From the NCBI RefSeq assembly GCF_028368995.1, contig NZ_JAQNDL010000001.1, positions 1,120,001 through 1,184,000 of the forward strand: 64,000 nt of DNA, in the 5' to 3' direction. Source of the DNA: Nannocystis bainbridge. Its GTDB lineage: Bacteria; Myxococcota_A; Polyangia; Nannocystales; Nannocystaceae. Shown one piece after another: positions 1,567 through 31,339 of this stretch. A model generated the notes under the pieces. It saw nothing but the letters and a program-made list of their open reading frames with translations, was not told the DNA's origin and did no database searches. The position numbers and the translations under genes are program-made. Numbering within the stretch: the stretch's first letter is position 1; every line of letters starts with the position of its first letter.

Positions 1567-1602
1567 GACGGTCCTTTCGAGAGCGGCGACGTGGAGCCGT
1601 GG

Positions 1603-2109: not shown

Positions 2110-2142
2110 CGTGAATCCCTTGATGAACTTCAGGCCAGGCGC

Positions 2143-2910
2143 TCACGCGAAGTACGAGGAGTGTTCCTCGCTCGGTGAGGCTCGACTGCCCGGCTGGGCG
2201 CGAACCGACCTCGCTAGGACCGCCAGGCGCTCCGGGCTCACCAGCACGAGGAAGCGGCCCTCGCGGCGGACGACGCCCTTCGCTTCCAGCTGCCGAAGCT
2301 CGAGCGCGGCGGTCTCACGCGTCATGCAAGCGAACGCGGCGATCTCCTGTTGGGGCAGTCGCCACGGGAGCCGACACCCCTCCTCCGTGGTGATGCCGTG
2401 CACCGCAAACTCGAGGAGCACCGCGGCGACCTTCGACCTCGCGCTGTTCGTGAGCGCGGAGCACAGCCGCCCGGCAGAGCACGCCTGGCGCTCGATCAGC
2501 CGGGCATAGAGGGTCCGTTCCAGGTCGACGCGCGCGTCGAGCAAGCGGCGGAAGTCGTCCCGCGACAACTCGGAATAGACCACCGGAGTCGCGGCGAGCG
2601 CCATCGTGTCGCGCACCCGCGGTGTCCAGCAGCATTCCTCGCCGAACAGGTCCCCGCGGTGATGATGGGCGAGGCCGATCGCACCGCCGCCCGCGTCGAC
2701 GTGAAGCTCGTTGACGCGGCCGTCGTGGACGAGAAACACCTGACTGGCGACGTCTCCGGTGAGATACAGGACGTGCCGGCGCCGAACCGACCGGAGATGT
2801 CCTCGCTCCACGAGGGCTTGAAGCTGGATCTCTCCGATCCCCGCGAGGATGGGCTGAGACTGAAGGAGTTCGAAGTGCCGATCGATGGCCACGCGGACCT
2901 GACCTTTCAT
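2143..2910 (-). CDS. Crp/Fnr family transcriptional regulator
   Basis: LYLTGD..SQVFLVHDGRV, GDLFGEE (cNMP-binding fold), HTH LPQQEIAAFACMTRETAALELRQL; start chosen at ATG 2910 within ORF 2143..3156. Confidence 0.88.
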   Translation of the reverse strand: MKGQVRVAIDRHFELLQSQPILAGIGEIQLQALVERGHLRSVRRRHVLYLTGDVASQVFLVHDGRVNELHVDAGGGAIGLAHHHRGDLFGEECCWTPRVRDTMALAATPVVYSELSRDDFRRLLDARVDLERTLYARLIERQACSAGRLCSALTNSARSKVAAVLLEFAVHGITTEEGCRLPWRLPQQEIAAFACMTRETAALELRQLEAKGVVRREGRFLVLVSPERLAVLARSVRAQPGSRASPSEEHSSYFA

Positions 2911-2984
2911 GCAGGAACGAAAAGGAAGGCCGCTGCCCGCACGGGAGGGGGACGATGCGTGCGGGCAGCGACCCGGAGGGAACT

Positions 2985-5900
2985 TCAGCCGCAGCCCGGG
3001 GTGAACAGCCCTTGCCCTTGCGGCGCGAGCGTGCCGGCACGGTGGCGGAGGCGCAGGACGACGTCGCTGATGCGGCGGACTTCGAGGTCGCGGTTCGCCG
3101 GCGCTCGGTCCGCGGCGGGGATCGTGAGCGTCCACTGCTCCCCGTGGACCGGCCACGCCGCGAACCCCCAGTTCGCGCCGGCCGTGCCCCAGTCGTTCAC
3201 GCCCGCCTGGACCACGAGCTCGTCGCGCTCGAAGCTGTACGGGACGTACGCGTCCCAGTCGGGCAGCTCAGCGCCGTCGCAGCGACGAACGCCGGCGAGC
3301 CCCTGGCGGGTGAGGATGACCTCGCCCTCGGCGTCGCCGAGGTAATCGCCGACGAGCTTCACCTCGATCTGCTCGAGGCGGTCGTCGCAGAGCGACGCCG
3401 AGAACAACGCGTGCTCGAAGGCGCTGAGCGTGAACGGCAGGTGGACCGAGCCGTCCGGCGCGCGGTGCAGTGGATCCGTGAGAAGCGCCGAGAATTGCTC
3501 GGCCGGCGTCGCCGGTGAGCCGTCGACGTCTGGGATGTCGGAGGCCATGCCGAAGATGTCGGCACGCAAGCTGACCTCCGTGACGTAGGCCTGCGGGGCG
3601 CCCTGCTCGAGCCGATAGTCCTCCGCGATCGTGTCGAGGCAGGCGAGGAGGTCCACGAAGTCCGCGGGCGCTCGCGCTGCAGCGAGCGAGTTGCGGAGTG
3701 TCGGGAACTCCTGGTTGATGTGGTACTCGAGCGCCCGGAGGGCCAGGTAGACCCGGCGCAGGGTTTGTTCGCGCGTCCGCAGGACGCGGCCTGCCGCGGC
3801 GAGGCGCGCCGCGAGGAAGTTCGGACGCTTGAGCGGGTTGTCGGGGCTGTCGTCCACCAGCAGGCCGACCGCGTTCGCCTGATCGATGAGCAGCGCGCCC
3901 ACCTCCTGAAACGCGCTCGACATCGCGGTCATCGCGGTGTCCCGCGCGAGCTCGGCTTCCTTCACCTCGATCTGCAGGAGCAGCGCCTCGGAGCGCAGGT
4001 TCTTGACGCGCGCCTCCGACTCGGCGCGGCGGACGTTGAGCTCGCCGGCGCGGATGATGGCGTCCATCTCGGCGTTGATCATGCGCAGCTCGAGATCCTC
4101 GTTGCGGCTGAGCTCGTCCATCTCGCCCGCGAGATCGGCGTTGGCCATGAGGCTCTCGCACTGGTTGTCCGTCGCGGCGACGTGCGCCGCCTTCTGGGCC
4201 TCGCACTGGTCTCTCGCCAGCACCAGACCCCGCCAGTCGGGCGTCGAGAAGCCGAAGACGCCGGGCCCGGAGAGCAACGCCTGCTGCGTCTGTTGCTTGC
4301 ACCCGGCGATGAGGGACTGGTACTCCGCGTTGGCGCTGGCGCGCACGCGGGTGCATTCGGCGATCGCAGCGGCCTGCTCCGCGGCCGACCGCGCCGTGCC
4401 GTAAGCGGTGACGACATTGATGATCTTCCCCTGGGCGTCGGCCACTGCCTGCTCGAGCTCCGCGTGCGCCGCGAGCTCCGCCGCGAACCGCTGCTCCTCC
4501 ACCTCGACCGCGTCGAGGTTGTTCTGCACCGCCTGCGCGGCGTGGTTGATGCGCAGCGTCGTCGCCTCGATGTTTGCCTGCAGCTCCGCGATCTGCCCGC
4601 CGTGGTCCCCGCAGGTCGCCAGATCCGGGCCATTCTCGCCGGGGCGGCTGCCGCAGTAGCCGCGGAGCTTGCCGCCGTATTCGTCCTGGATCCGCAGCGC
4701 GGTGGCCTGGAGGTCGTGGGACTTCGTCTCGTAGTCGCGGATCGCCTGCCAGGCCTCCGCCGCGACCTGCTCGAACATCTCGAGGTCCCCCGTCGCCATC
4801 GCTTTGACGGCCTCGAAATTCGTCCGGCCCTCGGTAATGGAAGCCTGATCCAGGGCGAGCGGCACATACGCCGCCGGGTAGCCGAACCAGCTCCTGCCTT
4901 CGGCGAGCTCCGTGTGTACGCCGGCGAGCGTGTCGAGCACGCTGCCGAGCGCCTGGAGCCCCGGAGCGGCGTCCGCATCATCAGCGAGGCGCTCCGCCAG
5001 CTCGGCGCTCGCCGCGTGCGCGGCGATCATCGCCAGGCGAACGGCCGTGCGGAGATCCGCCGCCTCTTGACCGGCGCGATGGCCGAGCCGGGCCCACGCA
5101 GCGGTCGCCCTGGCGTACTGGGCCAGCAGCTCGAGCGAGATGGTGCGCGCACGCGCCAGGGAGTCGTAGTCCGCGTTGTTCGCGAGCCACTCGAGGCTGA
5201 CGGGGTAGACCGGCGCCAGCGTCGGTGCCAGCGCGGCCGCGAGGCGCGTGCGGCTGGCCTCGAGCAGCTTCAGCTCTCGCGCGAGCGCGTCCGCGACGGG
5301 CTCCCCGAGGGAGTCCTTGAACGACAATGCGACATCGACCTCCGACTCGAGCGCCAGCAGCATGGCCGCCCGGCCCTCGTCCGCCGCGAACGTCGCCGCA
5401 AGGCGGATGAAGGCTTCGCCCCAGGGTCCGGGCGTCTGCGCCGCACCGGCACGGAAGAGCGCGTTGGCGCAGCGCAGCCCGTCGACGTCGAGGCAGGTTC
5501 GGCCGTCGTCCCCGTATTCGGGCGTCTCCGCCGTGCAGTCAGTCCAGGTGTCGCTGCCGGCGGGCGGGCTCACGTCCAGGTCTCCCTGAAGCGGGGCGAG
5601 GACCGCGTCGATGTTGAACGTCGCCTCGCGGAGGGCCTCGGCGCACTCGAGCCGGTCCGCGGCCGTGCATCCACCGGTCGCACAGGCGCTGCAGGCGGCG
5701 CTCGGCTCGACCAGGGCCTCATCGGTGCCGAAGGACTCTCCAAGCAGCACGCAGGCCTCGAAGTCGAGGCTCGGCGGCGCGAGCCACGTCGGCGCGGTCG
5801 CATCCTCGGGCACGTACGCCGCCGGGAGCACGAGGCCTCCGAGGGGTCCACGACGCCGCAGTACGAACGACCCCGCGAGCTCGACAGGCGTGGGGCGCAT

Positions 5901-6815
5901 GCCCGTGAGGGTCTCGTGGACCGAACCCGCGATCTGGTCCGCCGTGTGCTTGCCGCTCAGGACGAATTCGCGGCCGAGCTCGCGGGCGATGGGGCTGTGT
6001 CGCCAGTCCTCGGCGGGGAGCCGATCCCGCAGCACGACCGCCACGTCGCCGCCCGAGGTCCACGTCCCCGTGACGACCACCGGAAGCGGCCACAAGGGGC
6101 TCGCGTCGCCGCGGACACGACCCGCGATCGTCCCGCCGTCCCTGAAATCGAGCTCCAGCGCCAGCGCGGCGCTACCCAGGCCGACGTCGCCCGCCTCATG
6201 CTGCAGTGCCCCCTCGAAGTAGCCGGACTGTGGCAGGCCCTCCACTTCGATCGACCAAAGCAGCGTGCCCCCGCCGGCGACGATCTGGACCGGCAGCACG
6301 CGATGATCCGGCGAGATCTGGGCCCAGTCGAGGGCGACGACCAGCTCGACCTCCTCACCGGCTCCGAGCTCGGAAGGCGCCGGATCGAACGACAGCGCCG
6401 AGCTTCCGGCCGCGAGGCGGTACATGAGGGGGTGCGGGCTGTCGTTGCTGAGGACGGTGGTCGCGGCAGGGTCGCCAGGACGTACGATCGTCGTGCGGGA
6501 CGCCAGCACGGGCACCGCGGAGATCACGAGCGGCGCCTGCTCGTCGCCGACGCAGCGCCCGTGCGCGTCACACGTGCCCCCGCCGCAGACGGCATCACTC
6601 GGGCAGCCATCGACGCATACGCGCAGCTCGCAGTAGCGGCCCGCGCCACAGTCCGCGTCGAGCAAGCACACCGTGCCGGGCGGTCTGGTGGCCGCGGGCT
6701 GGAGAATGTCGAATGTTGTGTCCGACGACGTACCCGGTGCGTGGGCAACATCCGTATGACAGGCCAGAAGACAAGAGAGCGCCCATGGGGCCATCCGGAG
6801 GTAACGCGTACTCAT
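2985..6815 (-). CDS. Large lipoprotein: Cys-rich head, long coiled coil, Tc-toxin A-subunit-like C-terminal region
   Basis: 1276 aa; lipobox LLAC; Cys-rich CLLDADC..CELRVCVDGC..C; heptad coiled coil; C-terminal VTEVSL, RLEQIEV, QWTLTIP, ISDVVLRLRH motifs in the order expected for the TcA TcB-binding domain. Confidence 0.7.
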   Translation of the reverse strand: MSTRYLRMAPWALSCLLACHTDVAHAPGTSSDTTFDILQPAATRPPGTVCLLDADCGAGRYCELRVCVDGCPSDAVCGGGTCDAHGRCVGDEQAPLVISAVPVLASRTTIVRPGDPAATTVLSNDSPHPLMYRLAAGSSALSFDPAPSELGAGEEVELVVALDWAQISPDHRVLPVQIVAGGGTLLWSIEVEGLPQSGYFEGALQHEAGDVGLGSAALALELDFRDGGTIAGRVRGDASPLWPLPVVVTGTWTSGGDVAVVLRDRLPAEDWRHSPIARELGREFVLSGKHTADQIAGSVHETLTGMRPTPVELAGSFVLRRRGPLGGLVLPAAYVPEDATAPTWLAPPSLDFEACVLLGESFGTDEALVEPSAACSACATGGCTAADRLECAEALREATFNIDAVLAPLQGDLDVSPPAGSDTWTDCTAETPEYGDDGRTCLDVDGLRCANALFRAGAAQTPGPWGEAFIRLAATFAADEGRAAMLLALESEVDVALSFKDSLGEPVADALARELKLLEASRTRLAAALAPTLAPVYPVSLEWLANNADYDSLARARTISLELLAQYARATAAWARLGHRAGQEAADLRTAVRLAMIAAHAASAELAERLADDADAAPGLQALGSVLDTLAGVHTELAEGRSWFGYPAAYVPLALDQASITEGRTNFEAVKAMATGDLEMFEQVAAEAWQAIRDYETKSHDLQATALRIQDEYGGKLRGYCGSRPGENGPDLATCGDHGGQIAELQANIEATTLRINHAAQAVQNNLDAVEVEEQRFAAELAAHAELEQAVADAQGKIINVVTAYGTARSAAEQAAAIAECTRVRASANAEYQSLIAGCKQQTQQALLSGPGVFGFSTPDWRGLVLARDQCEAQKAAHVAATDNQCESLMANADLAGEMDELSRNEDLELRMINAEMDAIIRAGELNVRRAESEARVKNLRSEALLLQIEVKEAELARDTAMTAMSSAFQEVGALLIDQANAVGLLVDDSPDNPLKRPNFLAARLAAAGRVLRTREQTLRRVYLALRALEYHINQEFPTLRNSLAAARAPADFVDLLACLDTIAEDYRLEQGAPQAYVTEVSLRADIFGMASDIPDVDGSPATPAEQFSALLTDPLHRAPDGSVHLPFTLSAFEHALFSASLCDDRLEQIEVKLVGDYLGDAEGEVILTRQGLAGVRRCDGAELPDWDAYVPYSFERDELVVQAGVNDWGTAGANWGFAAWPVHGEQWTLTIPAADRAPANRDLEVRRISDVVLRLRHRAGTLAPQGQGLFTPGCG

Positions 6816-6962
6816 GACACACCTTTCCCGTGACGCCTGAAGCGGCGCGATCGAGCGAACGAACTCGGCGGCGGCAGCCGTCGTCGGGCGCCCGGAGCGG
6901 GCGCGGAGTAGATCAGGAGGCGTGCGCCTCAGGGTTGAAGAGAAATGGAGTCCCGCTTGATC

Positions 6963-7697
6963 TCATCGCCCACCTCGTCTCACTCGGCGGCGAGCGGGCG
7001 GGGACGGCTCCGTATCCGCGTCGTCGCTCGTCAAGGCCCGCAATCCCACGATATCGCGGAGGACGATGGCCTCGTCTGCTCTTACAATGAAGCCCTCGAG
7101 CTCAAGGCGCTGAAGTTCGACAGCAATCGTCTCTCGCGTCGCACCGACAAGCGCGGCGAGCTCTCGCTGGCGCAGACGCACGCGCCGCTGCTGCCCTCGC
7201 CCGTCCTGATCTCCCATATCGAGCAGCACCGCGGCGAGACGAGCGCGGACACTGCGGTTCAATACCGCGAAGGTACGACGCAAGGCGGCATCCCGATGCG
7301 CGATGGCCTGCTCCATCAGCGCTCGTTCAACGCCCGGATGTTCGTCGAGAAACAGCCGGAAGCAGGCGCGAGTGAACGTCGTCGCCCAAACAGGAGCGAC
7401 CACGACAGCGTCATCCTCCCAAATCGCCGTTTGCCAGAGACAGCCTTCGCCTACGACGTCGCCCGAGCGGCGGATATCAATTGTGACCACTCGATGCGGG
7501 CTCGCACGTCGGCCGATTGCGATGCGCCCCGAGTGGATGAGGTAGACGTGCTCGGCGGGATCGCCAGACGAGTGAATGCTGCTCCCAGCAGGGTGCTCGC
7601 GGGTAACCGCGGATTCGACAAGCACCGCGAGGCTCGACGGCGGCAGCACCCCGACAGGGAGCCGCCGAAAAAAGTCGTGGACGGTTCTGACGTGCAT
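6963..7697 (-). CDS. Crp/Fnr family transcriptional regulator
   Basis: SSGDPAEHVYLIHSGRI, GDVVGE, HTH LRQRELAALVGATRETIAVELQRL. Confidence 0.88.
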   Translation of the reverse strand: MHVRTVHDFFRRLPVGVLPPSSLAVLVESAVTREHPAGSSIHSSGDPAEHVYLIHSGRIAIGRRASPHRVVTIDIRRSGDVVGEGCLWQTAIWEDDAVVVAPVWATTFTRACFRLFLDEHPGVERALMEQAIAHRDAALRRTFAVLNRSVRARLAAVLLDMGDQDGRGQQRRVRLRQRELAALVGATRETIAVELQRLELEGFIVRADEAIVLRDIVGLRALTSDDADTEPSPPARRRVRRGGR

Positions 7698-7721
7698 GCG
7701 CCGGTCTCCACCTGCCGGCAG

Positions 7722-8051
7722 TCAGTGCGGTCCACCCGTCGAGCCAGGGCCCGGAGGCCACGCCAGTCGACGCGAGCCGAAGTGCCGGTCGACCAGCGCC
7801 GCGAGTTCACGAGATACCAGACGGACCCCGGAGCGGCCCACAAGCTCCGCGTCTCGCGGCAGCTCGTCGCCGTCAGGCTGGAGTAGAAGAGGCGCATCGG
7901 GTGCGCACAGCAGCCACTGGGCTCCTGTCGCGTCCACATACCAGACCCGCGTCCGGTTCATGTAGAAGCCCGGTTTTAGCCGCCGAACTTCATGGATCGT
8001 GACCTCGAACTCGTGTTCGTCTGTGCTCGAAGATCGCTCGGAATCGCTCAT
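7722..8051 (-). CDS. Hypothetical protein
   Basis: 109-aa ATG-started ORF co-oriented upstream of the Crp gene; no recognisable motif. Confidence 0.4.
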   Translation of the reverse strand: MSDSERSSSTDEHEFEVTIHEVRRLKPGFYMNRTRVWYVDATGAQWLLCAPDAPLLLQPDGDELPRDAELVGRSGVRLVSRELAALVDRHFGSRRLAWPPGPGSTGGPH

Positions 8052-8106
8052 CGAGAGAGTATCTCCGTGAAAACCTACGAAAAGCTAAAGTCATTTACAG
8101 ATATAT

Positions 8107-8121
8107 GCAAGATTAACTTGC
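8107..8121. promoter_or_regulatory. Inverted repeat GCAAG-ATTAA-CTTGC in an AT-rich divergent intergenic region (candidate operator)
   Basis: 5-bp arms with 5-bp spacer inside AT-rich stretch 8069-8133 between divergent ORFs. Confidence 0.4.
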
Positions 8122-8155
8122 TGGAAAATTAAGAGGATGTACCCTCGTCGAAGTC

Positions 8156-8635
8156 ATGGAACGCGTCCAGTCTGGGGCCACCGGACCCCTTCCATCTCCC
8201 GGGACCGTCCGGGACAAGGCCCTCGACGCACCGAGGGCACCACGCTTCGCCACTCCCTCGGAGCTCACCGAGGCGCTCGGCGCAGGGGACGTGTTCGCGG
8301 TCCGCGAGGCCTTCCCCAACATCTACGCGACGACAGACCAAGTCGCAGGCGCCGGTGAAATCGAGCGCGGAACGGTCGGTGATTGGGTGCGCGCCGGCCT
8401 CCTGCCGGCGCCAGGAGGCAGCGGCGGGCGTGGCAACAAGGCCAGGTTCCCGCTGTTCGCGGTCACCCTCGCCAAGTTCATCCGGGAGCAACGAAAGCAG
8501 GGATTCGGCCTCCCGGACCTGCGACCTATCATGGTGGCCACTTTTTGCCCGCGGATCCTTGAACTACTTGCACCCCCGCGCGAGTCACGTTCCGAACTCG
8601 CCAAGCGAAAGCAGCAAGAGCGCTCGCAGGAATGA
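8156..8635 (+). CDS. MerR/excisionase-like HTH DNA-binding protein
   Basis: TTDQVAGAGEIERGTVGDWVRAGLLPAP..GGRGNKARFP...QGFGLPDLR; paralogue of 22787..23089. Confidence 0.65.
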   Translation: MERVQSGATGPLPSPGTVRDKALDAPRAPRFATPSELTEALGAGDVFAVREAFPNIYATTDQVAGAGEIERGTVGDWVRAGLLPAPGGSGGRGNKARFPLFAVTLAKFIREQRKQGFGLPDLRPIMVATFCPRILELLAPPRESRSELAKRKQQERSQE

Positions 8636-9459: not shown

Positions 9460-12400
9460 TCAAGCGACGGTGTCGGCGGGACCCCGTAGGTCCCGGAGGA
9501 AGGTAGCTAGCAAGTCGTCAGCTGCGAGCCCGCCGGCCCCGCTCAAAGGGACGAGCTTCGCTCCATGGCGGCCGTAGAAGCCGTCAATCCCAGGCGCTGG
9601 AACATACGGCTCCCGCAGCGGCTGGTAATGGCCGTCAGCCAGGAACAGGGCGCCGGAGCGGTGACGGAAGATCGTCGCTGCCAGTTCGCATGCGTCGACG
9701 CGCCAAATCTGCACCCACGCGCCTGAACCACAGGCAAGGTGGCGGGCGTCGGGCGAGAAGACCACGGGTCCTTGATCGAGGCCGGTGGACAACGCACCGA
9801 GGAGCTCGCCGTCGCTACGCCGGCGGAGCTCGAGCACACCCCAAGCGGAAACGGCGAAAAGATCGCGGGCGGCGGAGAACGCGCAATGGGTCGCGCCCTT
9901 CGCTCCCTCGTGCTGCCAAACGCACGGGAGGTCCTCGGGGGCGAGGTCGTGTCGGCTATCGACCAACTGTGCGCGCACTCTCCCGCAGAGCGCAGCGAGA
10001 TCAGGGCGGACGACCGCCCCGCTGTGCGCGTCGATGCCGACGAGGTCCTCCGCGTCTGGCGCAGCGCAGACCCTGGTGTGGAGCTCGACCCTGAGCAGAG
10101 CCCGGCGGGGGGCGTCGAACAGGATCAGTGAGCCAGGGTGACCGCCGAATACCCACATCCCGTCGCCGTTCAGGACGATGAACGCGCCGCCGTCCGGCGC
10201 GAGGAAGTGCAGCCGATGCCTGCCTGTCCGGGTGCACCAGATGTCAGTCCGCGTTTCGTTCAGACGGTGCGGCTGCTGGATCAGCACATGTTCGCCGTCC
10301 GGTGTGAACCACCAACGCGACTCGCCGTCGTACTCGGCCCGGACGGGTGGCATCGGTACCTCGTCGAGGACGATCAGCCGCTTCTGTTCGTCGCACTCAA
10401 TGACGAACACACCGTCGCGTCGGTACACGCGCTGTCGCGCGGCCGCGTCTTCCCCTGGGTTGTGGTCGCACGGGTCGTGTTCGACCTGGCGATAACGGGA
10501 AATGCGGGTGCCGGCCTCGAGATCTAGCTCCTCGATGAATTGCCGACTCCGCAGAAGCAAGCCCCGGGACGTCCATTCAATGTGCTGCGGTGATTGCTCA
10601 GCGGGGAGAGGGTATTGGGGCGAGTGCGAACAGGTGGTGTCGAGGTCGAGCACCCGGACGCCGCCTTGGAGGACGAGGGCAAGCCGACGGCCGCGCGGCG
10701 AGACGAGCAGGGCTTCGGCGCGCGTGGCGAACGGGAGGGGGAAAGAACGCAGGGCGAACTCTCCAGTATCAATGCAGACGACTGTGCCGAGGGAATGCCC
10801 CGACAGGAACAGGAACAGCGAGCCGTCGTGGGACCAGCCAGTGCGGGGGAGGTCGCCGAACGGGTGGGCCCGGAAGCGAGGACTCAGGAGCTCGCGCGCC
10901 GGCGTCGTGGTCGGCTCGTCGATGGCGCGGAGCATTACTTTGTGGTCGGTGACGACGATCAGCGAGCGGCCGCTTGGCGCGAGCGAGGTCAGCCCGAGGA
11001 CGCCGCCGGCGTGTTCGGCCGTGAGCCGCTGCGAGGCGCGGTCATAAACCGTGAGCCGCGGTTGACGATGGGGAAGAGTCGGGGGGATTGAGCCGGCGAC
11101 GGTGACGAGCGCGCGGCCCCCGTCGACCAACCGTCCCTCGAAGCAGCGCGGCACCCAGGCCAGGACCTCCAGGAGGATGCCGTCGGCGGGGCACCAGCGG
11201 CGTGGGTGCTCGGAGAATGTCCACAGGGTGTCACTGTCCTCCCACCACAGCCCGGTAATCGGCGGAGCCGGATGCGTCAGCGCGACGGACCGGGACAGAT
11301 CGGTCAGGCTCCACACGGAGACGACCGGGTCGTCGCCAGCGACCGCGAGCCTATCGCCCATGGGCGAGAAGGACAGGGCTCGGACGGACGAAGACTGATC
11401 GCGCCAGCGCATCATGCAACGCAACGGCCCGACGGACCATACCTCGACGAGGCCGCTCGCGTACCCGACCGCAAGCCTGTGACCGTCGGGTGACCAGGCG
11501 AGCGCCGATACCTGGCGCTGGGGCGGCGGGGCGAGCGTGAGCTCGTCGTAAGCGATCGCGCTCGCGTCGGTGTGTTCGGACGCCCAGGCGACGTCGACTA
11601 TGCGAAGGCCCTCGGTAACGGCGCCCTCGAGATCGGGCGCCGTGGTGGCCGCACGGGTGCGGCTGAGGTCGGCGCCGCGGAGATCGGTGGCGCGGAACAC
11701 GACGCGATCGAGCTCCGCGCCGGAGAAGTCGGCGTCCACGGCGACGGCGTCGGTGAAGTCGGCACCGGTGAGGTCGCAGTCGTGTAGGTCGGCGCCACTG
11801 AGATCGGCGCCACAGAACAAGCTGTTGCGCAGGTAACAGCCGCACAGACGGGCGCCCGTGAGGTCGGCGTGGTGTAGGCGCAGGCAATCGATATGGACCG
11901 CGCGTAGATCGGCCCCGGGTAGCTTCCAGGGTCGCTCGCGCGTCGACCCGATGCTCGGGTCGGCGGCGACGAGCAAGAGCGCATTCGCGGCCTGAGTCGG
12001 CGACAGGCCGGTGCATAGGAGGTCGACCAAGCGCGCCTGCGCCTGCGGCCAGGCGCTGAGCCGCACGGCGTGGTGGACTGCATGGTTATAGAGCGGGAGA
12101 ATCTCGAGAACCGCGGCGTCGCCCCCAACCAGTGCGCGGACGATATGCCGGGCGAGCAGGTACTCGGCCGCGGGGTCCCAGGCGAGCGTGTAGAATGTGG
12201 GTGGCCCAGGCGAGACGAACGGGTCGTCGCGGATCAGGCTGCCACGCATGGCGAGCTGCATGGAAAGCCAATCATGCACCTCGCTCGCGTCGCCGGGCTG
12301 CGGGCTGGCCTGGGCTGAAGCGACCAGGGACTGCGTCAACGTCGCCAGCCCGTCCAGGCGCGGCCAATAACCCTCCTGGCTGCTCCGTTCTGCGTGCGTA

Positions 12401-15087
12401 CGGACAAATCGCTCGATAGGGACCCAGCCCGCCGAATGCGTGCTCGTGCGCGGGAACGGGGTCCACATCGCAAACGCGAGGTGCTCGAGCGAGCGGATGA
12501 ACGCCTCCGGTGCCACCGGGTCGATCAGGCGCGCGTGACGATCGAGGTAGAATTCGAGCGCCTCGGCCGGCGGCTCGGGCGATTCGCCCTGCGGAAGCGC
12601 GATGAAGCCGCGCGGAGTGCCAGCCGCCGGCCTGTCCTTCGGCCCGTATTGGCGGATCAGCACGGCCTGCTCATGCTTGCCGGCGGGGAGTAGCTCGATC
12701 ACAGTCGCGCCGGCGAGGGTCTCCTGCCGGCAGGTCACGAGCATGATGCGGCTCGCGTCGCTCACGTGCGGCGCGAGCCGCATGCGCGTGCCCCGGAGCG
12801 CACGGTGGTCGAGTCCGTCGAGCACGAGCAGGCAGTTGCCCGATCGAACAGCTAGCCGCACGGCGGCCCGCTCCACGGGATCGAGGTCGGCGAGGAGGTC
12901 GTGGAAACCTAACTCGGAGGACCGCGCGCAGTCGTGATAGAAGACCGGAGCGCCATCGCTGATCAGCGCCTGTTGAGCCAGGCGCGCCAGCCAAGCGCGC
13001 ACGAGGGTGGTCCGGCCGTCGAACAGCCGGCCGCGAAGGACGGCGGTCTCACCCCCGTGCGTGTGCCAGCGGTCGAGCGCCGCGAGCCCGGACATGTCTT
13101 CGCCAGACATGTGACAGGCGGGATCCACGAACCGGAGCCCGACCGGGCTGTAGACGAAGTCGGACAGCTCGCGCAGCCGTGGCGCGAGAGCAGCGAGTTG
13201 CTGGATCGCACGGTCGAGAGGCACGACGTCGTGGTCGAGGATGCGGGTGATCTGCGAGCCCTCGCCGCTCAGCAGCACGACCGGAAGCAGGTGACAAGCG
13301 ACGGTGCGGGCCTCGCGGAGGTCGCTCGCGTCCGGGAGCACCGGGGTGACGAAGACGACGTGGTGCGGCGGCACGACGAGGACGGGGACGCCGCCTGGAG
13401 ACCATCCAACCCATGCCGGGCAGGAACGCCGTAGCGCAAGGAAGGTGGCAGCGATCTCGAGGTCGTCGCGCGAGCCGACCAACGCGCCCAGGTCGCGCTC
13501 CGGCGCCTCAGAGTTTGCTGTGGTCGCGCGAGCCGTCAGCAGCGCGCGCGCCGGCCACAACCGGAAGCCGCGCCGTTCGAGGTTCGTGGGTGGCGGCCTC
13601 TCGGCCGCCCAGGCGTCGACCTCGCCGTTGGCGTCGATCGCCGGGCGCGACAGGGTTGGCGCGGGCTCCTCAAAGAGTGTCGATGTCACGGCGGCAGCAA
13701 TGCGATCGTTCGGGTCGGGCTCGAGCGTCCAGCGGCGCTGTGAGCACGCGTGCTGGAGCTCGTCGCGGGCACGCTCGATCGCCATGCGCTCGTCCGCGTC
13801 CACTCCGACACGATCGACGAACCGGCGCAGCGTGTGGAGCACGCCGAGTGCCAGCTGGCGCTCCATGTCGTCCGCAGACGAGACCGTGTCCGGGAGCCAG
13901 ACATCGCGCGCCAGCATGCGCAACCGGGCAAGTCCATGCTCCCCCTGCGCGCCCTTGGCGAGGATCCGCCAGCGCTGGGCGACCTGCGGGACTGTAGTGT
14001 AGCGCTTGCAAGCGAGGGCGAGCTCGGCCTGCTGGCGCTCGCGCTCGTCATGGAAGGCGAACACGTTGGGGGTCGCCAGTAGCGACCGGGCGACACTCGC
14101 AAGCTGGCGATCGCCGGCCTCCGGCAGGATTAGCGAGTACGTGACGAGCTCGCTCGGGACATGGCTGAGGTAGGTGTTCGGACGAGTCGCGGCGGGATGC
14201 TCGAGGGACAGGTCGACGACGCACACTGCCTCAGTCTCGGCCGGCATCGGGCTGAGCCGGCTCCCGGGTAGCAGCGAGCGGCCGTCGCCAGCGCCGAAGC
14301 AGAACACGTTAGTTCCGCCGAGGCTGGCGTGGTTGGCGTACGCGACCGGCCGGTGGAAATGGCGGTAGATGTCGTCGGCGTTGTGGGCGAACAGCGGGGC
14401 GGTGTCCTTCGAGGTATACGAGGGGACGGCAATCAGGTCGCAGTCGTACAGCTTCTGGTGCTTCTCTGCCGCTGCGTCGTCGCGGTGGCGGAGGAAGTCG
14501 ATGCAGATCGCTACGCCGACCGTCATGCTGTCGCCTCCGCGCAAGGGAACCACACACGGGCGAATTTCTGAGCCCGTGTCGAGCACGGTCTCCCACTGAC
14601 TCCGCCACAGCTTGTCTTGGTATTGGACGTGGCCTTGGGGCTTGATGAATGGAGCGATCGCGCGGTTGGTCGGGGGTACGTCGGCGAAGCACTCGCGGTA
14701 AGCTGGGTCGCGCAGCAACTGTGCCGTGACGAGGTGGGTGCCGGCAACCAGTGTGCATCTGGCCGCTTGCGCCAGAGTCACAAGCCGCGGCATCAATTGC
14801 CCAGGGATGACGTACTCGGAGAAGACGATGAGGTCGACGTCCAAGGCACCGCAGAACTCGACGACGGCTTTGAGCTTGGGGAGGAGCGCGTCGCAGTAGG
14901 CGCGCGTCACGTCGCGCTGCAGACGGGCGAGAGGCCCGAGCAGCGTCGAGTCTGGCGACAGCCGCTCGCACATCTCGCCGAGGATGCAGCGGTCGATTGG
15001 TTCACTCAGGAAGTCGTGCCCGGGGGCCTCGAACGCCAGACGACCCGCGAGTTGGACGACAGCGACTCGCGCCTTCCGTTCACGCAT
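9460..15087 (-). CDS. NLR-like protein: nitrilase (C-N hydrolase) + NACHT-like NTPase + pentapeptide repeats + WD40 repeats
   Basis: VAVVQL..VDLIVFSEY (E), YQDKL (K), VAICIDFL (C) triad; GRLFDGRTT and LLVLDGLDH Walker-like motifs; ADLSGADL repeats; LAWSPDGHRLAVG and LSFSPMGDRLAVAG WD40 repeats; start ATG 15087 (ORF extends to 15168). Confidence 0.85.
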   Translation of the reverse strand: MRERKARVAVVQLAGRLAFEAPGHDFLSEPIDRCILGEMCERLSPDSTLLGPLARLQRDVTRAYCDALLPKLKAVVEFCGALDVDLIVFSEYVIPGQLMPRLVTLAQAARCTLVAGTHLVTAQLLRDPAYRECFADVPPTNRAIAPFIKPQGHVQYQDKLWRSQWETVLDTGSEIRPCVVPLRGGDSMTVGVAICIDFLRHRDDAAAEKHQKLYDCDLIAVPSYTSKDTAPLFAHNADDIYRHFHRPVAYANHASLGGTNVFCFGAGDGRSLLPGSRLSPMPAETEAVCVVDLSLEHPAATRPNTYLSHVPSELVTYSLILPEAGDRQLASVARSLLATPNVFAFHDERERQQAELALACKRYTTVPQVAQRWRILAKGAQGEHGLARLRMLARDVWLPDTVSSADDMERQLALGVLHTLRRFVDRVGVDADERMAIERARDELQHACSQRRWTLEPDPNDRIAAAVTSTLFEEPAPTLSRPAIDANGEVDAWAAERPPPTNLERRGFRLWPARALLTARATTANSEAPERDLGALVGSRDDLEIAATFLALRRSCPAWVGWSPGGVPVLVVPPHHVVFVTPVLPDASDLREARTVACHLLPVVLLSGEGSQITRILDHDVVPLDRAIQQLAALAPRLRELSDFVYSPVGLRFVDPACHMSGEDMSGLAALDRWHTHGGETAVLRGRLFDGRTTLVRAWLARLAQQALISDGAPVFYHDCARSSELGFHDLLADLDPVERAAVRLAVRSGNCLLVLDGLDHRALRGTRMRLAPHVSDASRIMLVTCRQETLAGATVIELLPAGKHEQAVLIRQYGPKDRPAAGTPRGFIALPQGESPEPPAEALEFYLDRHARLIDPVAPEAFIRSLEHLAFAMWTPFPRTSTHSAGWVPIERFVRTHAERSSQEGYWPRLDGLATLTQSLVASAQASPQPGDASEVHDWLSMQLAMRGSLIRDDPFVSPGPPTFYTLAWDPAAEYLLARHIVRALVGGDAAVLEILPLYNHAVHHAVRLSAWPQAQARLVDLLCTGLSPTQAANALLLVAADPSIGSTRERPWKLPGADLRAVHIDCLRLHHADLTGARLCGCYLRNSLFCGADLSGADLHDCDLTGADFTDAVAVDADFSGAELDRVVFRATDLRGADLSRTRAATTAPDLEGAVTEGLRIVDVAWASEHTDASAIAYDELTLAPPPQRQVSALAWSPDGHRLAVGYASGLVEVWSVGPLRCMMRWRDQSSSVRALSFSPMGDRLAVAGDDPVVSVWSLTDLSRSVALTHPAPPITGLWWEDSDTLWTFSEHPRRWCPADGILLEVLAWVPRCFEGRLVDGGRALVTVAGSIPPTLPHRQPRLTVYDRASQRLTAEHAGGVLGLTSLAPSGRSLIVVTDHKVMLRAIDEPTTTPARELLSPRFRAHPFGDLPRTGWSHDGSLFLFLSGHSLGTVVCIDTGEFALRSFPLPFATRAEALLVSPRGRRLALVLQGGVRVLDLDTTCSHSPQYPLPAEQSPQHIEWTSRGLLLRSRQFIEELDLEAGTRISRYRQVEHDPCDHNPGEDAAARQRVYRRDGVFVIECDEQKRLIVLDEVPMPPVRAEYDGESRWWFTPDGEHVLIQQPHRLNETRTDIWCTRTGRHRLHFLAPDGGAFIVLNGDGMWVFGGHPGSLILFDAPRRALLRVELHTRVCAAPDAEDLVGIDAHSGAVVRPDLAALCGRVRAQLVDSRHDLAPEDLPCVWQHEGAKGATHCAFSAARDLFAVSAWGVLELRRRSDGELLGALSTGLDQGPVVFSPDARHLACGSGAWVQIWRVDACELAATIFRHRSGALFLADGHYQPLREPYVPAPGIDGFYGRHGAKLVPLSGAGGLAADDLLATFLRDLRGPADTVA

Positions 15088-15292
15088 GGCTAGCACGGTA
15101 ACACGATGCCGCGCCTGCGACCTAGGCTCCATCCCCTGGGAAGGAACCCTTGTACCGCCTGTCGCCACGTCGGGTCTTTCGTCACACCTCTCCGCCGGCG
15201 AGCTTCCAGCTCATGAAGCGGCCAAGATCGGTCTCTTGGGCTACGTAAGGGGTCCGGACGGATACAGTTTCTTCCTCGGGTCTGAAGGTCTG

Positions 15293-16181
15293 TTAGCGGG
15301 CCGACCGGGCGCAGCGGATGCCGTACTTGAAGTCGCTGCTCGTCGGTTCGCCGGCATTGCGCGCCGAGACGCGCTCCCAGCCGAGCATCGGCAGGTAATA
15401 GTCGACGCCGCGGATCGCTCGTTTGCGGCCGAGCGGCGCGCCGGTCGGGTTGCGCTGCACCGAGGGCGAGTAGCCGCGGATGTTGGCGAGGCGGTCCTCC
15501 TCGACCCAGTCGTGGACGTGTTCGGCGAGGTTGCCGATCATGTCGAGCGCGCCGTACGGGGAGGCGCCCGCGGGGTAGGCCGACCGGCGCGAGTCCCTCG
15601 TGCCCGTCGTCCCACGCGACGGGCGGGAACTTCGGCCAGGCCGGAGAGCAGCGCGCGTCGCAGAGGTTGGCGTGGGTCGGGCCCGGCGGGTCGTTGCCCC
15701 ACGGGTAGATGCGGGCGTCGGTGCCGCGCGCGGCCTTCTCCCACTCGGCTTCGCTCGGCAGCCGCCTGCCGGCCCATGCGCAATATGCGGCTGCGTCGAG
15801 CCACCGAACGCAATTGATCGGGAGATCGGGGCGATCGGTCTTGCCCCACAAGCAGTATTCATGGGTCATGTGCTCGGTCCTGCAGGCGCCGTCGGCAACG
15901 CAGCGGCGGTAGTCGGCGAGCGTCACCTCGAGTCTGTCAATGTCGAAAGTGTCGAGCCAGACCTCATGCTGCGGTCGCTCGGCGTCTCGGCAGGCGGCGT
16001 CGTGGGAGGCGCAGCCCATCATGAACGCGCCCTCGGGGACGCGGACCATCCCCGCCGGGATCGCGGGCGGAGGGGCGGGAACAGACGGAGGGACGGGAGC
16101 GGACGGTTCGGCGACGTCCGGACGCGGTGGGACGGCGGTGCAGGCCGAGAGCAACGAGACGAGCCACGGAAGAGTGCGCAC
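15293..16181 (-). pseudogene. FGE-sulfatase (SUMF1) domain lipoprotein, frameshifted near 15580 (may be a sequencing error)
   Basis: Lipobox LSAC, FMMGC..ERPQHEV, RRLPSEAEWEKAARG..YPWG in one frame; YPAGASPYGALDMIGNLAEHV..YGIRCA in another. Confidence 0.85.
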
Positions 16182-16509
16182 AACGGGGAGTGTAGAATAG
16201 TTTGTCGTCAGTTGGGCGTCGCGCAGGCGGGGGCGTCGGCGGCGAGTATGGCGGCAAGCTCGAGGGCGGCCCGCGCCCGCCTCAGCGCCCGGTCGGAAGG
16301 ACCTGTGCCGTTGTTCCAGGCGCGGAGAGCCAGCGGCGGGCCGGGGCCGGCTCGCCGGCTACCTTCGTTGCCGCACGACATGCGGTGCAGCTACACACGC
16401 TCGCCCTCGCGGCACAGCAGGTTGCTGTGCCTCGTCCCATCCTTGCCCAAGAGCCGCGCCCTCAAGCTCGCCCCCGCCATTCGGTAGCAGGCATTCGAGT
16501 AACCATCGA

Positions 16510-16762
16510 GAAGAGCGGCCACGGGAGGCAATCGAGTAGGCTGGACGAGAGCGCGTCGAGGTCGTTGGGCACCGATACGACGAGTCCGCAACGGTATAGT
16601 CCCCTTGAAATTCTTGCTGCACCGATGACATCGTGTGCGAGCGGCAGGAGCGCCGTCCACAAGCGCGGCAACGGGGAGCAATCGAGCAGACCGGGCGAGA
16701 GCGTGTCGAGCACCGATGCGACGAGTCCGCAACATTTAGTCCCGTCGAAATTCTTGCTGCAC
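16510..16762. repeat. Two imperfect non-coding direct repeats of about 100 bp
   Basis: Copies ~16510-16622 and ~16661-16762 share GCAATCGAG, GAGAGCG.GTCGAG, CACCGAT.CGACGAGTCCGCAAC and GAAATTCTTGCTGCAC. Confidence 0.8.
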
Positions 16763-16779
16763 GTGGGGCGGTGCTTTTC

Positions 16780-18355
16780 GAGATTTAAGAGCCTCCGAGG
16801 GTGGAGCTCGGGGCGGGATCGGGCGAATAAGCGGAGGCATGGATCCGATGGCGACTCAAGCACGAGAGCCCGACCCCGAGACCGCCGAGAAGGCGACCGG
16901 CCGCAGCTTCACGGCCGCGTACAAGCGGAAGATCCTCGCCCTGACCGATCACGCCAGGGGCAGATCGGCGCCATCCTGCGGCGGGAGGGCCTGTACAGTT
17001 CGTTGCTGTCGACCTGGAGGCGACAGCGGGACGAGGGTACGCTGGGGGCGTTGAAGCCGAAGAAGCGCGGACCGAAGCCGAAGCAGGACCGGGAGATGGA
17101 GCGCTTGCGCCGCAAGGTGGCGCAGCTCGAGCAGAAGCTCGAGACGGCGGAGCTGATCATCGACGTCCAAAAAAAAGTCTCGCAATTGCTCGGGATCCCG
17201 CTAGCGACGCTCGAGCCGTCCGAGAAGCTCTGATCGCGCAGGCGGGCGAGCTGTCCGAGAGGACAGGTCTTCCACGGGCATGCGAGGCGCTCGGGGTCTC
17301 GCGGGCGACGGTGTACCGCCGTCGCCACCCCGCGCCGGCGAGGCCGCCCAGGCCACGGCGGTCTCCGCGGGCGCTGAGCCCGGACGAGCGCCAGGAGGCG
17401 CTGGCGCTTCTGCACAGTGAGCGCTTCATCGACAAGGTGCCCGAGGTGATCGTGCCGACCCTGCTCGACGAGCAGCGCTGGGTGTGCAGCGCGCGGACGA
17501 TGTATCGCCTGCTCGCCGCCGAGGGCGAGCTCCGCGAGCGGCGGCGCCAGCGGCGACACCGAGTACAAGCGCCCCGAGCTGCTGGCGACCGCGCCGAACC
17601 AGGTGTGGTCGTGGGACGTGACCTGGCTGCGAGGACCGACGAAGGGCCAATACTACTACCTGTACGTCCTGCTCGACATCTACAGCCGCTGTGTCGTCCG
17701 CGTGACCCTCGCGCGCCGCGAGACCGCCGACATCGCCGCGCGCCTCATTCGCGCCGCCTGCGACAAACAGAACATCCAACCTGACCAATTGACCATCCAC
17801 GCCGATCGCGGCGCCGTCCCGACGTCCCGCGAGCTCGCCGACCTCTACGACGCCCTCGGCGCCCGCCGCTCGCACAGCCGGCCCCACGTCAGAGACGACA
17901 ACCCGTACTCGGAAGCCCACTTCAAGACCCTCAAGTACACCCACGACTACCCCGCCCGCTTCGCCTCCTACGACGACGCCCACGCCTTCTGCGCCCGCTT
18001 CGTCGACGGCTACAACCATCACCACCGTCACTCCGGCATCGCCTTCCTGGCGCCCGCCGACGTGCATTACGGCCGCACCGAGGCCATCCTGTCCGTCAGG
18101 ACTGCCGCCCTCCACGCCGCCTACGAGGCCCACCCGGAGCGCTTCGTCCGCGGACGGTCCACGCCGCGACGACCCCCCTCCGCGGTCTATATCAACCCAC
18201 CGCGCCGCTTCGACAGCGGCCTTCGCGAGTACGACATCCATGTCCTTACGGACAGGTGCATCGCTGCCGAGGCATCCCAGGACTGCCACGCCGGTGGATT
18301 CTCACACTCACTAAACCTGGCCAGCACCGTGTCTCAAAATCATTGACAGGCTCCG
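16780..18355 (+). mobile_element. IS3-family element, degenerate (orfA 16839-17233 and orfB ~17230-18346 both frameshifted)
   Basis: RSFTAAYKRKIL / GAILRREGLYSSLLSTWRRQ (orfA); APNQVWSWDVT, IHADRG, NPYSEAHFKT DDE core; end-like GTGTCTCAAAATCATTGACA at 18329-18348; left end uncertain. Confidence 0.88.
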
Positions 18356-18497
18356 CTTCGAGCTGCACCTCCGCAAGGTCTTCAAGGTCGATGAGGCTCT
18401 GAGCTGGATGCTCGGGACCACCTCCTTGGAGGGAGAGCTACGCGCTCGGGCTCGCCGAAGGGTGCGGGCCGCTTCACTGCGCCGAAGTCGGAGTGAG

Positions 18498-26560: not shown

Positions 26561-26900
26561 CTAGTTCTCTCGCGGCCTGTCGCGGCGCTCTCGCCTGCCC
26601 GGCAACGACCTGAAGCGGCGTGGAGGCGATGGCGCGGCCGAGCTCTGCCACGCTGGCAGCGCGGCGGTGAGCTACGCCCATGACGGCCTGAGCCTGATCG
26701 GTACCGTCGTCGCGGCTCCGATGAGTGAGGTGTGCGGGCAGAAGCTCGTCGTCGTGGTCACCTTCGCCGCCGACGCACCCGACTTCGCATTCGTCAGCCT
26801 CAGATCCGGGCGACACCAGCACCGGTCCGTGACCGGTACTGCGCCGAGCATGACGAGCGCAGGGCTGATGACGATTCGCCGCAGCATGGTCGGCGAGCGC

Positions 26901-31331: not shown

Positions 31332-31339
31332 GATCCGAG

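Follow-up and report, generated by a model that had tools for sequence, protein, structure and literature searches.

The window analyzed (the whole stretch of 64,000 nucleotides of Nannocystis bainbridge DNA) carries on its minus strand a single intact coding sequence for a protein of 1875 amino acids, enclosed in a slightly longer ORF that spans 9460..15168 (-). Translation was taken to begin at the ATG at 15087, a start that is common to nine of nine full-length homologs and at which the ESM Atlas record also begins; residues are numbered from this Met. The gene encodes an NLR-like receptor made up of a nitrilase-type domain, a linker, a NACHT-type STAND module, and a sensor of pentapeptide repeats and WD40 elements (Table 1). 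An earlier note on this DNA had given the same extent for the gene, which the single ORF and the shared start confirm. The order nitrilase-NACHT-pentapeptide-WD40 that it proposed also agrees with our Pfam matches (pentapeptide, WD40), profiles and predicted fold, which place an effector and a NACHT-type STAND module ahead of a repeat sensor.

Table 1. Positions of the receptor gene and its features in the window
Feature	Coordinates	Strand	Residues	Basis or remark
Whole CDS	9460..15087	-	1875 aa	ORF, homolog starts, ESM Atlas; stop codon 9460-9462
Nitrilase-superfamily (CN-hydrolase-like) domain	14098..15087	-	1-330	
Catalytic tetrad codons	14815-14817; 14611-14613; 14590-14592; 14503-14505	-	Glu91; Lys159; Glu166; Cys195	
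Helical extension	13528..14097	-	331-520	Helices in structure model
Conserved alpha/beta region before NACHT	13168..13527	-	521-640	Alignment block; modeled strands and helices
NACHT-type nucleotide-binding domain	12688..13167	-	641-800	Profile, fold and motif comparison
Walker A, G686-RLFDGR-T693	13009-13032	-	686-693	Arg692 (13012-13014) replaces Lys
Helical and winged-helix part of STAND module	11938..12687	-	801-1050	Alignment A3, model, fold matches
Pentapeptide-repeat beta-helix	11644..11922	-	~1056-1148	Pfam PF00805, E 3.1e-18, above cutoff; NCBIfam pentapeptide models
WD40 / beta-propeller region	9463..11523	-	~1189-1875	Pfam WD40 38.6 bits, and propeller families

In the WD40 region, degenerate blades come after two clear repeats, and conservation within the protein is lowest here. 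Its internal repeats match the WD40 arrays of relatives, and the C-terminal 575 amino acids are WD40-like by ESM features (0.89-0.94). Between the N-terminal domain and the NACHT domain, the first ~130 residues of the helical extension are common to relatives that retain the P-loop lysine (Lys-type relatives), and an HMM of the region matches L012/P0033 and other relatives. The alpha/beta region that follows carries the motif PAWVGWSP...VLV...HVV...DLR.AR and is 43-51% identical even to distant clade members.

An upstream ORF of the FGE-sulfatase family ends 2 nt before the receptor ATG. An operon of the two genes was considered and rejected, since the upstream ORF is frameshifted: the N-terminal half of its domain lies in the frame of 15090-16181 and the C-terminal half in that of 15293-15862, and when it is read through the shift, its end moves to about 15293. 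The upstream gene begins with a lipoprotein-like signal.

A divergent nitrilase-like domain on many scaffolds

The Pfam model for CN hydrolases (PF00795) did not match the N-terminal domain at E<=10, and searches of this domain with Pfam, NCBIfam and phmmer against the PDB returned nothing; its identity came exclusively from profiles and folds. With PF00795 the distant relative L006 scores 19.3 bits, short of the 23.2 cutoff. Profile search of the PDB gave weak matches, mostly to CN-hydrolases, and in profile alignments the catalytic motifs line up with the FPE of a nitrilase and the GVxICED of NAD synthetase. The domain has the alpha-beta-beta-alpha sandwich fold of the CN-hydrolase superfamily; it is a divergent nitrilase branch, recognized by fold and not by the Pfam model. 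Many nitrilase branches fit the fold to the same degree, so nothing in it points to a substrate.

The complete E-K-C triad that had been read from the sequence is present, together with a second Glu. Of its approximate positions, 14815 and 14503 fall inside the codons of Glu91 (VFSEY) and Cys195 (AICIDF), respectively; the predicted Lys is also there (Lys159, QDKLW), but the base named for it, 14610, sits one below its codon. All four residues are unchanged in 10 of 10 full-length sequences that share 33-79% identity, and distant relatives, at 23-29% identity, also have all four. Gln12, Tyr92, His118 and Asp197 are invariant residues specific to the family. No part of the protein is better conserved than the nitrilase domain, which shows 43-47% identity in distant homologs versus 21-29% for the sensor. 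Judged from the retained tetrad and this conservation, the domain appears to be an enzyme under selection.

Of 154 family sequences in which the four positions are all covered, 138 have the full E-K-E-C tetrad and 6 lack the catalytic Cys, so the nitrilase-like domain can persist without catalysis. It might then serve mainly as a structural module for oligomerization or scaffolding, with the output coming from another protein. In the DRT1 report (PMC13275509), every contact of the DRT1 tetramer is made by the nitrilase domain, which would suit such a role. A candidate for the separate output is a calcineurin-like phosphoesterase (Metallophos), the gene for which lies 3' of the receptor gene in two Lys-type relatives (L014 and L015). 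Retention of the tetrad at the frequencies given above is hard to explain without catalysis, however, and no Metallophos gene adjoins the receptor gene of the window or its full-length homologs in L001 and L002; we consider a mainly structural domain quite unlikely. A two-chain prediction for the nitrilase domain from alignment A2 (score 0.01, mark 0.42) spoke neither for nor against a dimer.

An exhaustive profile search with the N-terminal domain, in which clusters were defined at 50% identity, retrieved representatives of 1542 clusters at E<=1e-3; 724 of these remained at <=1e-10 and 288 at <=1e-30, the last set being taken as the family. In nearly all family matches the domain is N-terminal in a protein of 1000-2800 amino acids. 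Its partners include NACHT with WD40, NACHT with FGE-sulfatase (P0047), NACHT with HEAT (P0059), STAND with TPR (AAA_22/ATPase_2 in L004 and P0153), and a HerA-like module (DUF87/TrwB ATPase in P0151). In one relative, L012, a TIR_2 domain precedes the nitrilase-like domain, NACHT, pentapeptide repeats and WD40. The domain thus appears, from these architectures, to behave as the swappable N-terminal effector module that the earlier note had supposed, being carried on several NTPase and sensor scaffolds and once behind a TIR. Models of nitrilases linked to defense are also reached, namely CARF_nitrilase (E 6.3e-9, L014), RT_UG5-nitrilase (E 1e-4, L004) and RTasNitrilase (E 0.0045, the window protein); the generic CN_hydrolase model of Pfam misses these proteins.

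The domain is sporadically distributed: 5 of 61 related genomes carry it, as do 3 of 301 sampled across the phylum, and it was not found in any of 10 genomes of the same genus. In viral contigs, 14 pattern matches were obtained, none of them a relative.

A NACHT-type module with altered nucleotide-binding motifs

The structure model (pLDDT 83.9) was compared with known folds by Foldseek. NLRC4, NOD2, NLRP3 and NAIP5 were the best matches (E 7e-8 to 1e-4), with CED-4 and Dark lower, and the matches cover about 500 columns of the NACHT modules of NLRs. The A3 profile also matches NOD2 (E 2.5e-4) and NLRP9 (E 3e-3). As modeled, the central module has the NBD-helical-winged-helix fold of NLRs of the NACHT clade. 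With the Pfam NACHT model (PF05729) the protein scores 15.3-17.6 bits, below the gathering cutoff of 26.7 bits, which is passed by relatives with the same N-terminal domain (L015, 32.5; P0047, 48.4; P0059, 47.1 bits).

The nucleotide-binding motifs depart from those of these relatives. In all 14 sequences of the target clade (the window protein, P0002-P0010, P0036, P0042, P0043 and P0048), the Walker A Lys is Arg, at variance with the consensus GxxxxGK[ST]; GK[ST] is present in 51 long relatives. Walker B of the window protein reads LLVLD757-G-L-D760-H761. The clade keeps Asp757 and Asp760, and the Glu that should follow (hhhhDGhDE) is His, Asp, Gly or Ala. The sensor-1 position, T-C786-R in the window protein, is Arg, Gln or Trp across the clade, so Arg is not conserved there, and in alignment A3 Trp970 (AWD) occupies the place of the FAHKSF histidine of the relatives. 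Lys-type relatives L012-L015 retain DGFDEM, S(S/T)RDH and FAHKSF. On these comparisons the ATP-hydrolysis machinery of the target clade is degenerate, and with an Arg in the P-loop and three further nucleotide-contact motifs lost, a switch driven by ATP in the usual way should not be taken for granted. Another 37 long relatives have neither GK[ST] nor GR[ST] between residues 331 and 1000, three of them having no Pfam domain at all.

A degenerate P-loop could signify a switch that is broken rather than re-tuned, in which case the clade would consist of decaying NLRs that no longer signal, present as relics or as non-signaling decoys. The combined loss in one clade of the Walker A Lys, the Walker B Glu, the sensor-1 Arg and the winged-helix His is what decay would leave behind. 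Decay seems very improbable to us all the same, as all 1875 codons stand in one unbroken ORF and all domains and the enzyme tetrad are conserved. Moreover, Asp690, Gly691, Arg692 and Trp970 are invariant in 10 sequences that are no more than 33-37% identical; motif changes that are fixed in such divergent sequences argue for a selected new state, not drift.

Genomic setting and proposed function

The gene lies in a strain-specific, IS-rich block of about 48 kb (window ~8.7-56.8 kb) that has no collinear counterpart in genomes of the same genus. The block also holds a gene for a DruE3-like (Druantia-III-like) helicase (E 9e-211), so the earlier description of the neighborhood as defense-rich has some basis, but this gene is 28 kb from the receptor gene, and the eight nearest ORFs scanned gave no real defense match, none being found within 10 kb. 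A nearby Crp-like regulator was discounted as a PycTIR component because it matches the PycTIR models through its cNMP-binding domain alone. Among seven flanked loci of the family, two have a defense-type gene within 10 kb: in L002 the next gene encodes a SIR2-NACHT protein, and in L014 an adjoining gene encodes a PLD and helicase protein that is DrmC-like (E 7e-13). The L015 locus carries an integrase and a transposase.

We think it probable that the protein is a receptor in immunity or conflict whose oligomerization sets off an amidase. The architecture, folds, motif states and modular spread come directly from the computations; from them we infer the immune role and the oligomerization trigger. 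The pentapeptide beta-helix and the WD40 propellers would form the ligand-binding sensor, the NACHT module the oligomerization hub, and the nitrilase domain with its helical extension the output enzyme. When the sensor binds a foreign protein, autoinhibition would be released, whereupon the NACHT modules would assemble and bring the nitrilase domains together. Nitrilase-superfamily enzymes need homo-oligomers for activity. The thiol of Cys195, with Glu91, Lys159 and Glu166, would then cleave a C-N bond, of an amide or of another kind, in a molecule essential to the cell, and growth of the infected cell would halt. In the target clade, the switch would not depend on NTP hydrolysis and might also dispense with the customary ADP lock, ligand binding alone driving assembly. 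The amidase or deaminase acting on a small metabolite that the earlier note proposed is plausible. Its immune reading is supported by the architecture and the swappable effector and in part by the neighborhood; the few loci with defense genes, the lack of relatives in viral contigs, and the failure of PADLOC Avs or bNACHT models to match all count against it.

WD40-STAND proteins are also common in the non-immune signaling of large, developmentally complex genomes. Here, an endogenous or environmental cue, sensed through the WD40 and pentapeptide parts, might switch on a metabolic amidase in development, stress or nitrogen metabolism, and the protein would resemble the many STAND regulators with WD40 or TPR repeats in large bacterial genomes. 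Consistent with this, the neighbors at L001, L012 and L013 are ordinary metabolic or signaling genes (histidine kinase, sugar-nucleotide enzymes, P450, GNAT), the window also holds an ECF sigma gene with a Ser/Thr-kinase-WD40 gene, and no PADLOC defense model claims the protein. Genomes of one genus usually share housekeeping regulators in synteny, however, whereas this gene is strain-specific and sits in an IS-rich island. Its domain has been shuffled among scaffolds and fused once to a TIR, and sequence change has been quicker in the sensor than in the enzyme. On balance we regard such a regulator as unlikely.

The window protein shares with bNACHT and Avs proteins a single chain with an N-terminal effector, a central STAND NTPase and a repeat sensor at the C-terminus. 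It also has the NACHT fold in common with them, and effectors and sensors are swappable across the relatives. According to PMC13581612, prokaryotic STANDs can have WD40 or FGE-sulfatase sensors. It differs from bNACHT and Avs proteins in its nitrilase-superfamily effector and, in the target clade, in the missing P-loop Lys. With PADLOC-DB v2, just two models matched at E<=1: HEAT-ARM_XIII (over the WD40 stretch, E 1.6e-4) and RTasNitrilase (E 4.5e-3). In the literature covered, the source data of Kaur et al. 2020 and the supplements of the bioRxiv preprints aside, no paper was found that pairs a nitrilase with a STAND or NLR protein, and the word nitrilase is absent from the main text and six supplementary files of PMC13581612 and from the bNACHT preprint as indexed. 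That this is not a characterized system, as first suggested, agrees with these searches. One described system with an inactive STAND, the iSTAND MoxR-vWA ternary system, is defined by linked MoxR ATPase and vWA genes (Kaur et al. 2020; PMC7159879); it was set aside, as Pfam found no MoxR or vWA family in the 34 ORFs scanned in the window.

Nitrilase-superfamily domains with the full tetrad are found in DRT1 and UG5 (DRT11), where they are presumed to be abortive-infection effectors activated by assembly, and the window protein, which has weak HMM similarity to them, may by analogy be likened to these. The nitrilase of DRT1 is an effector that needs oligomeric assembly (PMC13275509) and DRT11 requires its nitrilase domain (PMC13436386); both domains count as proven antiphage effectors, and neither has a reported substrate. 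Their nitrilase domains are C-terminal, however, whereas that of the window protein is N-terminal, and the regulator is protein-primed DNA synthesis in the former and a STAND with a repeat sensor in the latter. No reverse transcriptase family was found among the Pfam matches of the protein or its neighboring ORFs. Furthermore, the similarity of DRT1 to the N-terminal domain in the PDB profile search (E 0.25) was no better than that of metabolic nitrilases. The CARF-nitrilase model (PADLOC PDLC01989) likewise joins a sensor to a nitrilase-like effector and is matched by L014 over the Glu-motif region, but is not reached by the window protein itself. CARF-nitrilase is an ancillary protein of type III CRISPR, and its CARF sensor binds cyclic oligoadenylate.

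The tripartite plan of bacterial STANDs is known; in the literature covered, a nitrilase-superfamily effector on that plan appears to be new, and the catalog of bacterial NLR effectors would gain a putative amidase class. It is possible, and we suggest it tentatively, that STAND-linked nitrilase-like domains form an undescribed class of immune effectors that destroy or modify an essential amide metabolite (such as NAD+ or nicotinamide, a nucleotide, or glutamine), with the target clade a naturally hydrolysis-dead NLR assembled by its ligand. The TIR-nitrilase tandem of L012 hints at an NAD-linked substrate. A ligand-gated oligomerizing receptor offers a second, independent and simpler setting in which to approach the substrate of nitrilase effectors, with hundreds of natural variants, one of them seen fused to a TIR. 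Since sister clades combine the same types of effector and sensor with a P-loop that is canonical in some and has a fixed Lys-to-Arg change in others, they constitute a natural experiment on the NLR switch, and comparing the Lys-type with the Arg-type clades would reveal whether NLRs require the nucleotide switch in order to assemble. If borne out, the hydrolysis-dead clade would be a bacterial counterpart of P-loop-independent NLRs.

Among eukaryotic proteins, Apaf-1 resembles the window protein in having an NBD-HD-WHD module followed by WD40 propellers. The Walker A Lys and the WHD His, present in Apaf-1 and NLRC4-type proteins, are both replaced here. Those proteins recruit caspases via CARD or PYD adaptors, whereas the window protein has its enzyme fused directly to the receptor chain.

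The target gene and its N-terminal domain

The target is a single minus-strand ORF whose start was placed at the ATG at 15087, since all nine full-length homologues start there with M-R/Q and the ESM Atlas entry of the protein likewise begins at this Met. The product is 1875 residues long; the window is about 68% G+C, and the host genome comprises 11.0 Mb in 5 contigs. The intact ORF, together with the domain and fold assignments, confirms the earlier observation that nitrilase, NACHT, pentapeptide and WD40 regions are joined in one gene. The three positions that the earlier note assigned to a catalytic triad lie in or beside the codons of Glu91 (VFSEY), Lys159 (QDKLW) and Cys195 (AICIDF).

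Pfam CN_hydrolase did not match the N-terminal domain (N-domain, residues 1-330) at E<=10, and phmmer found no match in the PDB; among plain sequence methods, only the PADLOC RTasNitrilase model recognized it (E 0.0045). A profile of a nine-sequence N-domain alignment gave weak PDB matches (E 0.025-0.5), the majority to the nitrilase superfamily, including the NAD synthetase glutaminase domain, a nitrilase, carbamoylases and the reverse transcriptase-nitrilase defence system DRT1. In these alignments the Glu and Cys motifs line up with the catalytic motifs of the matched enzymes. With the AlphaFold model (pLDDT 74.7, pTM 0.77), the best Foldseek matches were all nitrilase-superfamily structures, from E 2e-11, as were 50 of the 50 matches listed, with no branch preferred; ESM Atlas neighbours also carry the name carbon-nitrogen hydrolase. 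The identity of the N-domain as a predicted nitrilase-superfamily enzyme is settled by the AlphaFold model.

Glu91, Lys159, Glu166 and Cys195 are unchanged in all ten full-length proteins. Among 154 family sequences spanning all four positions, the E-K-E-C tetrad is complete in 138; the second Glu is replaced by Asp in 7 and by Val or Asn in 3, and 6 lack the catalytic Cys. Four more residues, Gln12, Tyr92, His118 and Asp197, are nearly invariant and characterize the family.

The full-length architecture is rare, but the N-domain family is not. The former was found in 9 proteins of a 5.8-billion-protein collection (the remaining 21 of 30 matches cover repeats only), once among 185,579 species genomes (in a Nannocystis MAG) and at two metagenomic loci; viral contigs yielded no relative. 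An exhaustive N-domain profile search of 1.84 billion cluster representatives gave 1542 matches at E<=1e-3, 724 at <=1e-10 and 288 at <=1e-30, with the domain almost always N-terminal in proteins of 1000-2800 aa. Homologous loci L015 and L013 encode N-domain, NACHT, pentapeptide and WD40 regions (NACHT of L013 was assigned by motifs, being absent among the Pfam rows listed), and L012 has TIR_2 ahead of the same series. L014 combines the N-domain with NACHT-type motifs, likewise assigned by motif, and 13 WD40 repeats. Elsewhere the N-domain is joined to NACHT and FGE-sulfatase (family protein P0047), NACHT and HEAT (P0059), AAA_22/ATPase_2 and TPR (L004, a group of about 1040-1065 aa) or a DUF87/TrwB-type ATPase (P0151); P0061, P0070 and P0101 (about 2300 aa) have no Pfam domain. 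PADLOC defence-linked nitrilase models match some relatives (CARF_nitrilase, E 6.3e-9; RT_UG5-nitrilase, 1e-4). The 2831-aa member P0138 carries a C-terminal IS66 transposase domain (residues 2484-2798), which probably reflects read-through in gene calling or the insertion of an IS into a receptor gene.

The STAND module and sensor

Pfam NACHT scored 15-17.6 bits on the target, below the 26.7 cutoff. A profile of the central region, built with relatives, matched NOD2 (E 2.5e-4), NLRP9 and NLRP5, and the model of residues 335-1075 (pLDDT 83.9) matched NLRC4, NOD2, NLRP3 and NAIP5, with CED-4 and Dark ranking lower (E 7e-8 to 2e-4). These matches assign the centre to the NACHT-type STAND modules; its nucleotide site is degenerate. 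Relatives with the same N-domain and a canonical P-loop (Lys-type) keep the textbook nucleotide motifs, whereas the target clade does not.

Nucleotide-site motifs in the two groups
Motif	Lys-type relatives	Target clade
Walker A	GxFGxGKST	GxxxDGR(T/S)
Walker B	CFDGFDEM	LDG(L/F)D, then His/Asp/Gly/Ala
Sensor 1	(S/T)SRDH	TC(R/Q/W)
Winged helix	FAHKSFLEFF	AWD, Trp970 invariant

Residues 331-1000 were surveyed for Walker A in 102 family sequences of >=900 residues, 53 shorter ones being set aside. GK[ST] occurs in 51, GR[ST] only in 13, both in 1 (the Arg one a chance site) and neither in 37. The Arg-type set of 13 coincides exactly with the orthologous clade of the target (P0002-P0010, P0036, P0042, P0043 and P0048). 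Asp690, Gly691 and Arg692 are invariant in proteins of only 33-37% identity, so the Arg P-loop has been fixed under selection and does not reflect decay. For this clade we infer a switch free of NTP hydrolysis.

After the STAND module come pentapeptide repeats (E 3e-18) and then WD40 repeats, with nothing but degenerate blades in the last 575 residues. Internal repeats of this last stretch match WD40 arrays in relatives, and its ESM features are those of WD40 propeller proteins. Against distant clade members, the nitrilase domain (43-47%) and the pentapeptide part (44-53%) show the highest identity and the C-terminal propeller (21-29%) the lowest, the sequence pattern of a conserved effector and a fast-evolving sensor.

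Proposed function and novelty

The earlier interpretation as an immune receptor is supported in part, and that role is probable though unproven. The best-supported reading is that of an NLR-like conflict receptor with a nitrilase-type enzyme as its output. Ligand would be bound by the propeller and beta-helix, followed by assembly through NACHT; the nitrilase domains, brought together, would become active and hydrolyse a C-N bond of an essential molecule, causing growth arrest. These steps are proposed because of general STAND receptor behaviour and DRT1, where the nitrilase is described as the effector, oligomeric assembly as required and the substrate as still unknown (PMC13275509). DRT11 is also described as requiring its nitrilase domain (PMC13436386).

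No instance of the word nitrilase is present in the main text of Kaur et al. 2020 (PMC7159879) or in the main text and 6 supplementary files of a 2026 survey of prokaryotic STANDs (PMC13581612); the examined text of 10.1101/2024.10.26.620412 mentions it solely as RT-nitrilase. No paper listed in a search for nitrilase with bNACHT, Avs or NLR-like contains it. Within the literature so delimited, the nitrilase-STAND pairing is undescribed, and the target represents a bacterial NLR whose effector class is new and whose P-loop is naturally Arg-substituted.

Genomic setting

The N-domain was found in 5 of 61 related genomes, the target's own included, in none of 10 same-genus genomes examined and in 3 of 301 genomes of a phylum-wide sample.

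Coordinates of features in the window and at homologous loci
Feature	Location	Strand	Remarks
Target ORF	15168-9460	-	
Cassette	1-6815	-	SpvB/FG-GAP protein (partial, window edge), Crp-like cNMP-binding regulator, 1276-aa protein
Collinear segment	1-8628		80-93% identity to one same-genus genome
Uncovered segment	9010-15679		
Split FGE-sulfatase gene	15090-16181; 15293-15862	-	directly upstream of target; frameshift-split
Multi-copy IS	16501-18360		1.4 kb from target start
rve integrase ORF	17603-18346		within IS
LysM / M74 peptidase gene region	26597-28279		98% identical to same-genus genome G005; surroundings unshared
ECF sigma factor and Ser/Thr kinase-WD40 genes	30717-34948	+	overlapping; kinase-WD40 protein 1216 aa
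Druantia type III-like pair	39952-49940	+	1199-aa ORF, then 2130-aa DruE3-like helicase; 4-nt overlap
G+C rise	56000-60000		77-80%
841-aa ORF	57329-59854		93% G+C at first codon positions
SIR2_2 - NACHT - Couple_hipA gene	L002 9693-13490	+	1265 aa; after full-length homologue
Metallophos gene	L014 9065-11161		directly after nitrilase-NACHT gene
Metallophos gene	L015 3152-4810		directly after nitrilase-NACHT gene

In the same-genus DNA comparison, the uncovered segment had no counterpart among the 150 matches listed (120 weaker ones lie beyond). Copies of the IS elsewhere in its own genome, and many in same-genus genomes, share 84-87% identity with it. From 20 to 56.8 kb there were scattered IS-like matches only, plus one 98%-identical gene, and similarity returns at 56836, but to a distant part of the genome that is collinear over 1-8628. 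Because this comparison shows no collinear match, the target is placed in a strain-specific block some 48 kb long, which also contains transposase genes and the DruE3-like helicase (PADLOC E 9e-211). The neighbourhood had been called defence-rich; this holds for the helicase in the same block, but no real defence match was found within 10 kb of the target.

At homologous locus L002 the SIR2-NACHT gene adjoins the homologue, so that two NLR-like genes with different effectors are adjacent. L014 is flanked by a PLD+helicase gene (DrmC-like), Metallophos (calcineurin-like phosphoesterase) and two FGE-sulfatase genes, and L015 by Metallophos, integrase and transposase; L001, L012 and L013 have ordinary neighbours. 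L014 and L015 are Lys-type relatives from different genera, and in L014 the Metallophos gene overlaps the 3' end of the nitrilase-NACHT gene. Metallophos may be a conserved partner; it is absent beside the target clade.

Several further features of the window were observed. The 1199-aa ORF ahead of the helicase, with no Pfam or PADLOC match, may be a divergent DruH. The split FGE-sulfatase gene (profile positions 4-138 in one frame, 168-255 in another; N-terminus resembling a lipoprotein signal, LLSAC) is either a pseudogene or a sequencing error. The 98% identity of the LysM / M74 peptidase region to G005, amid unshared surroundings, suggests recent transfer. The 1276-aa protein has no Pfam domain; its gene and the SpvB/FG-GAP gene have several paralogous copies (66-75% identity) in this and same-genus genomes. 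The kinase domain of the kinase-WD40 protein matches PADLOC kinase models (PD-T4-6, E 1e-55), and the 56000-60000 stretch with its 841-aa ORF is of unusual composition.
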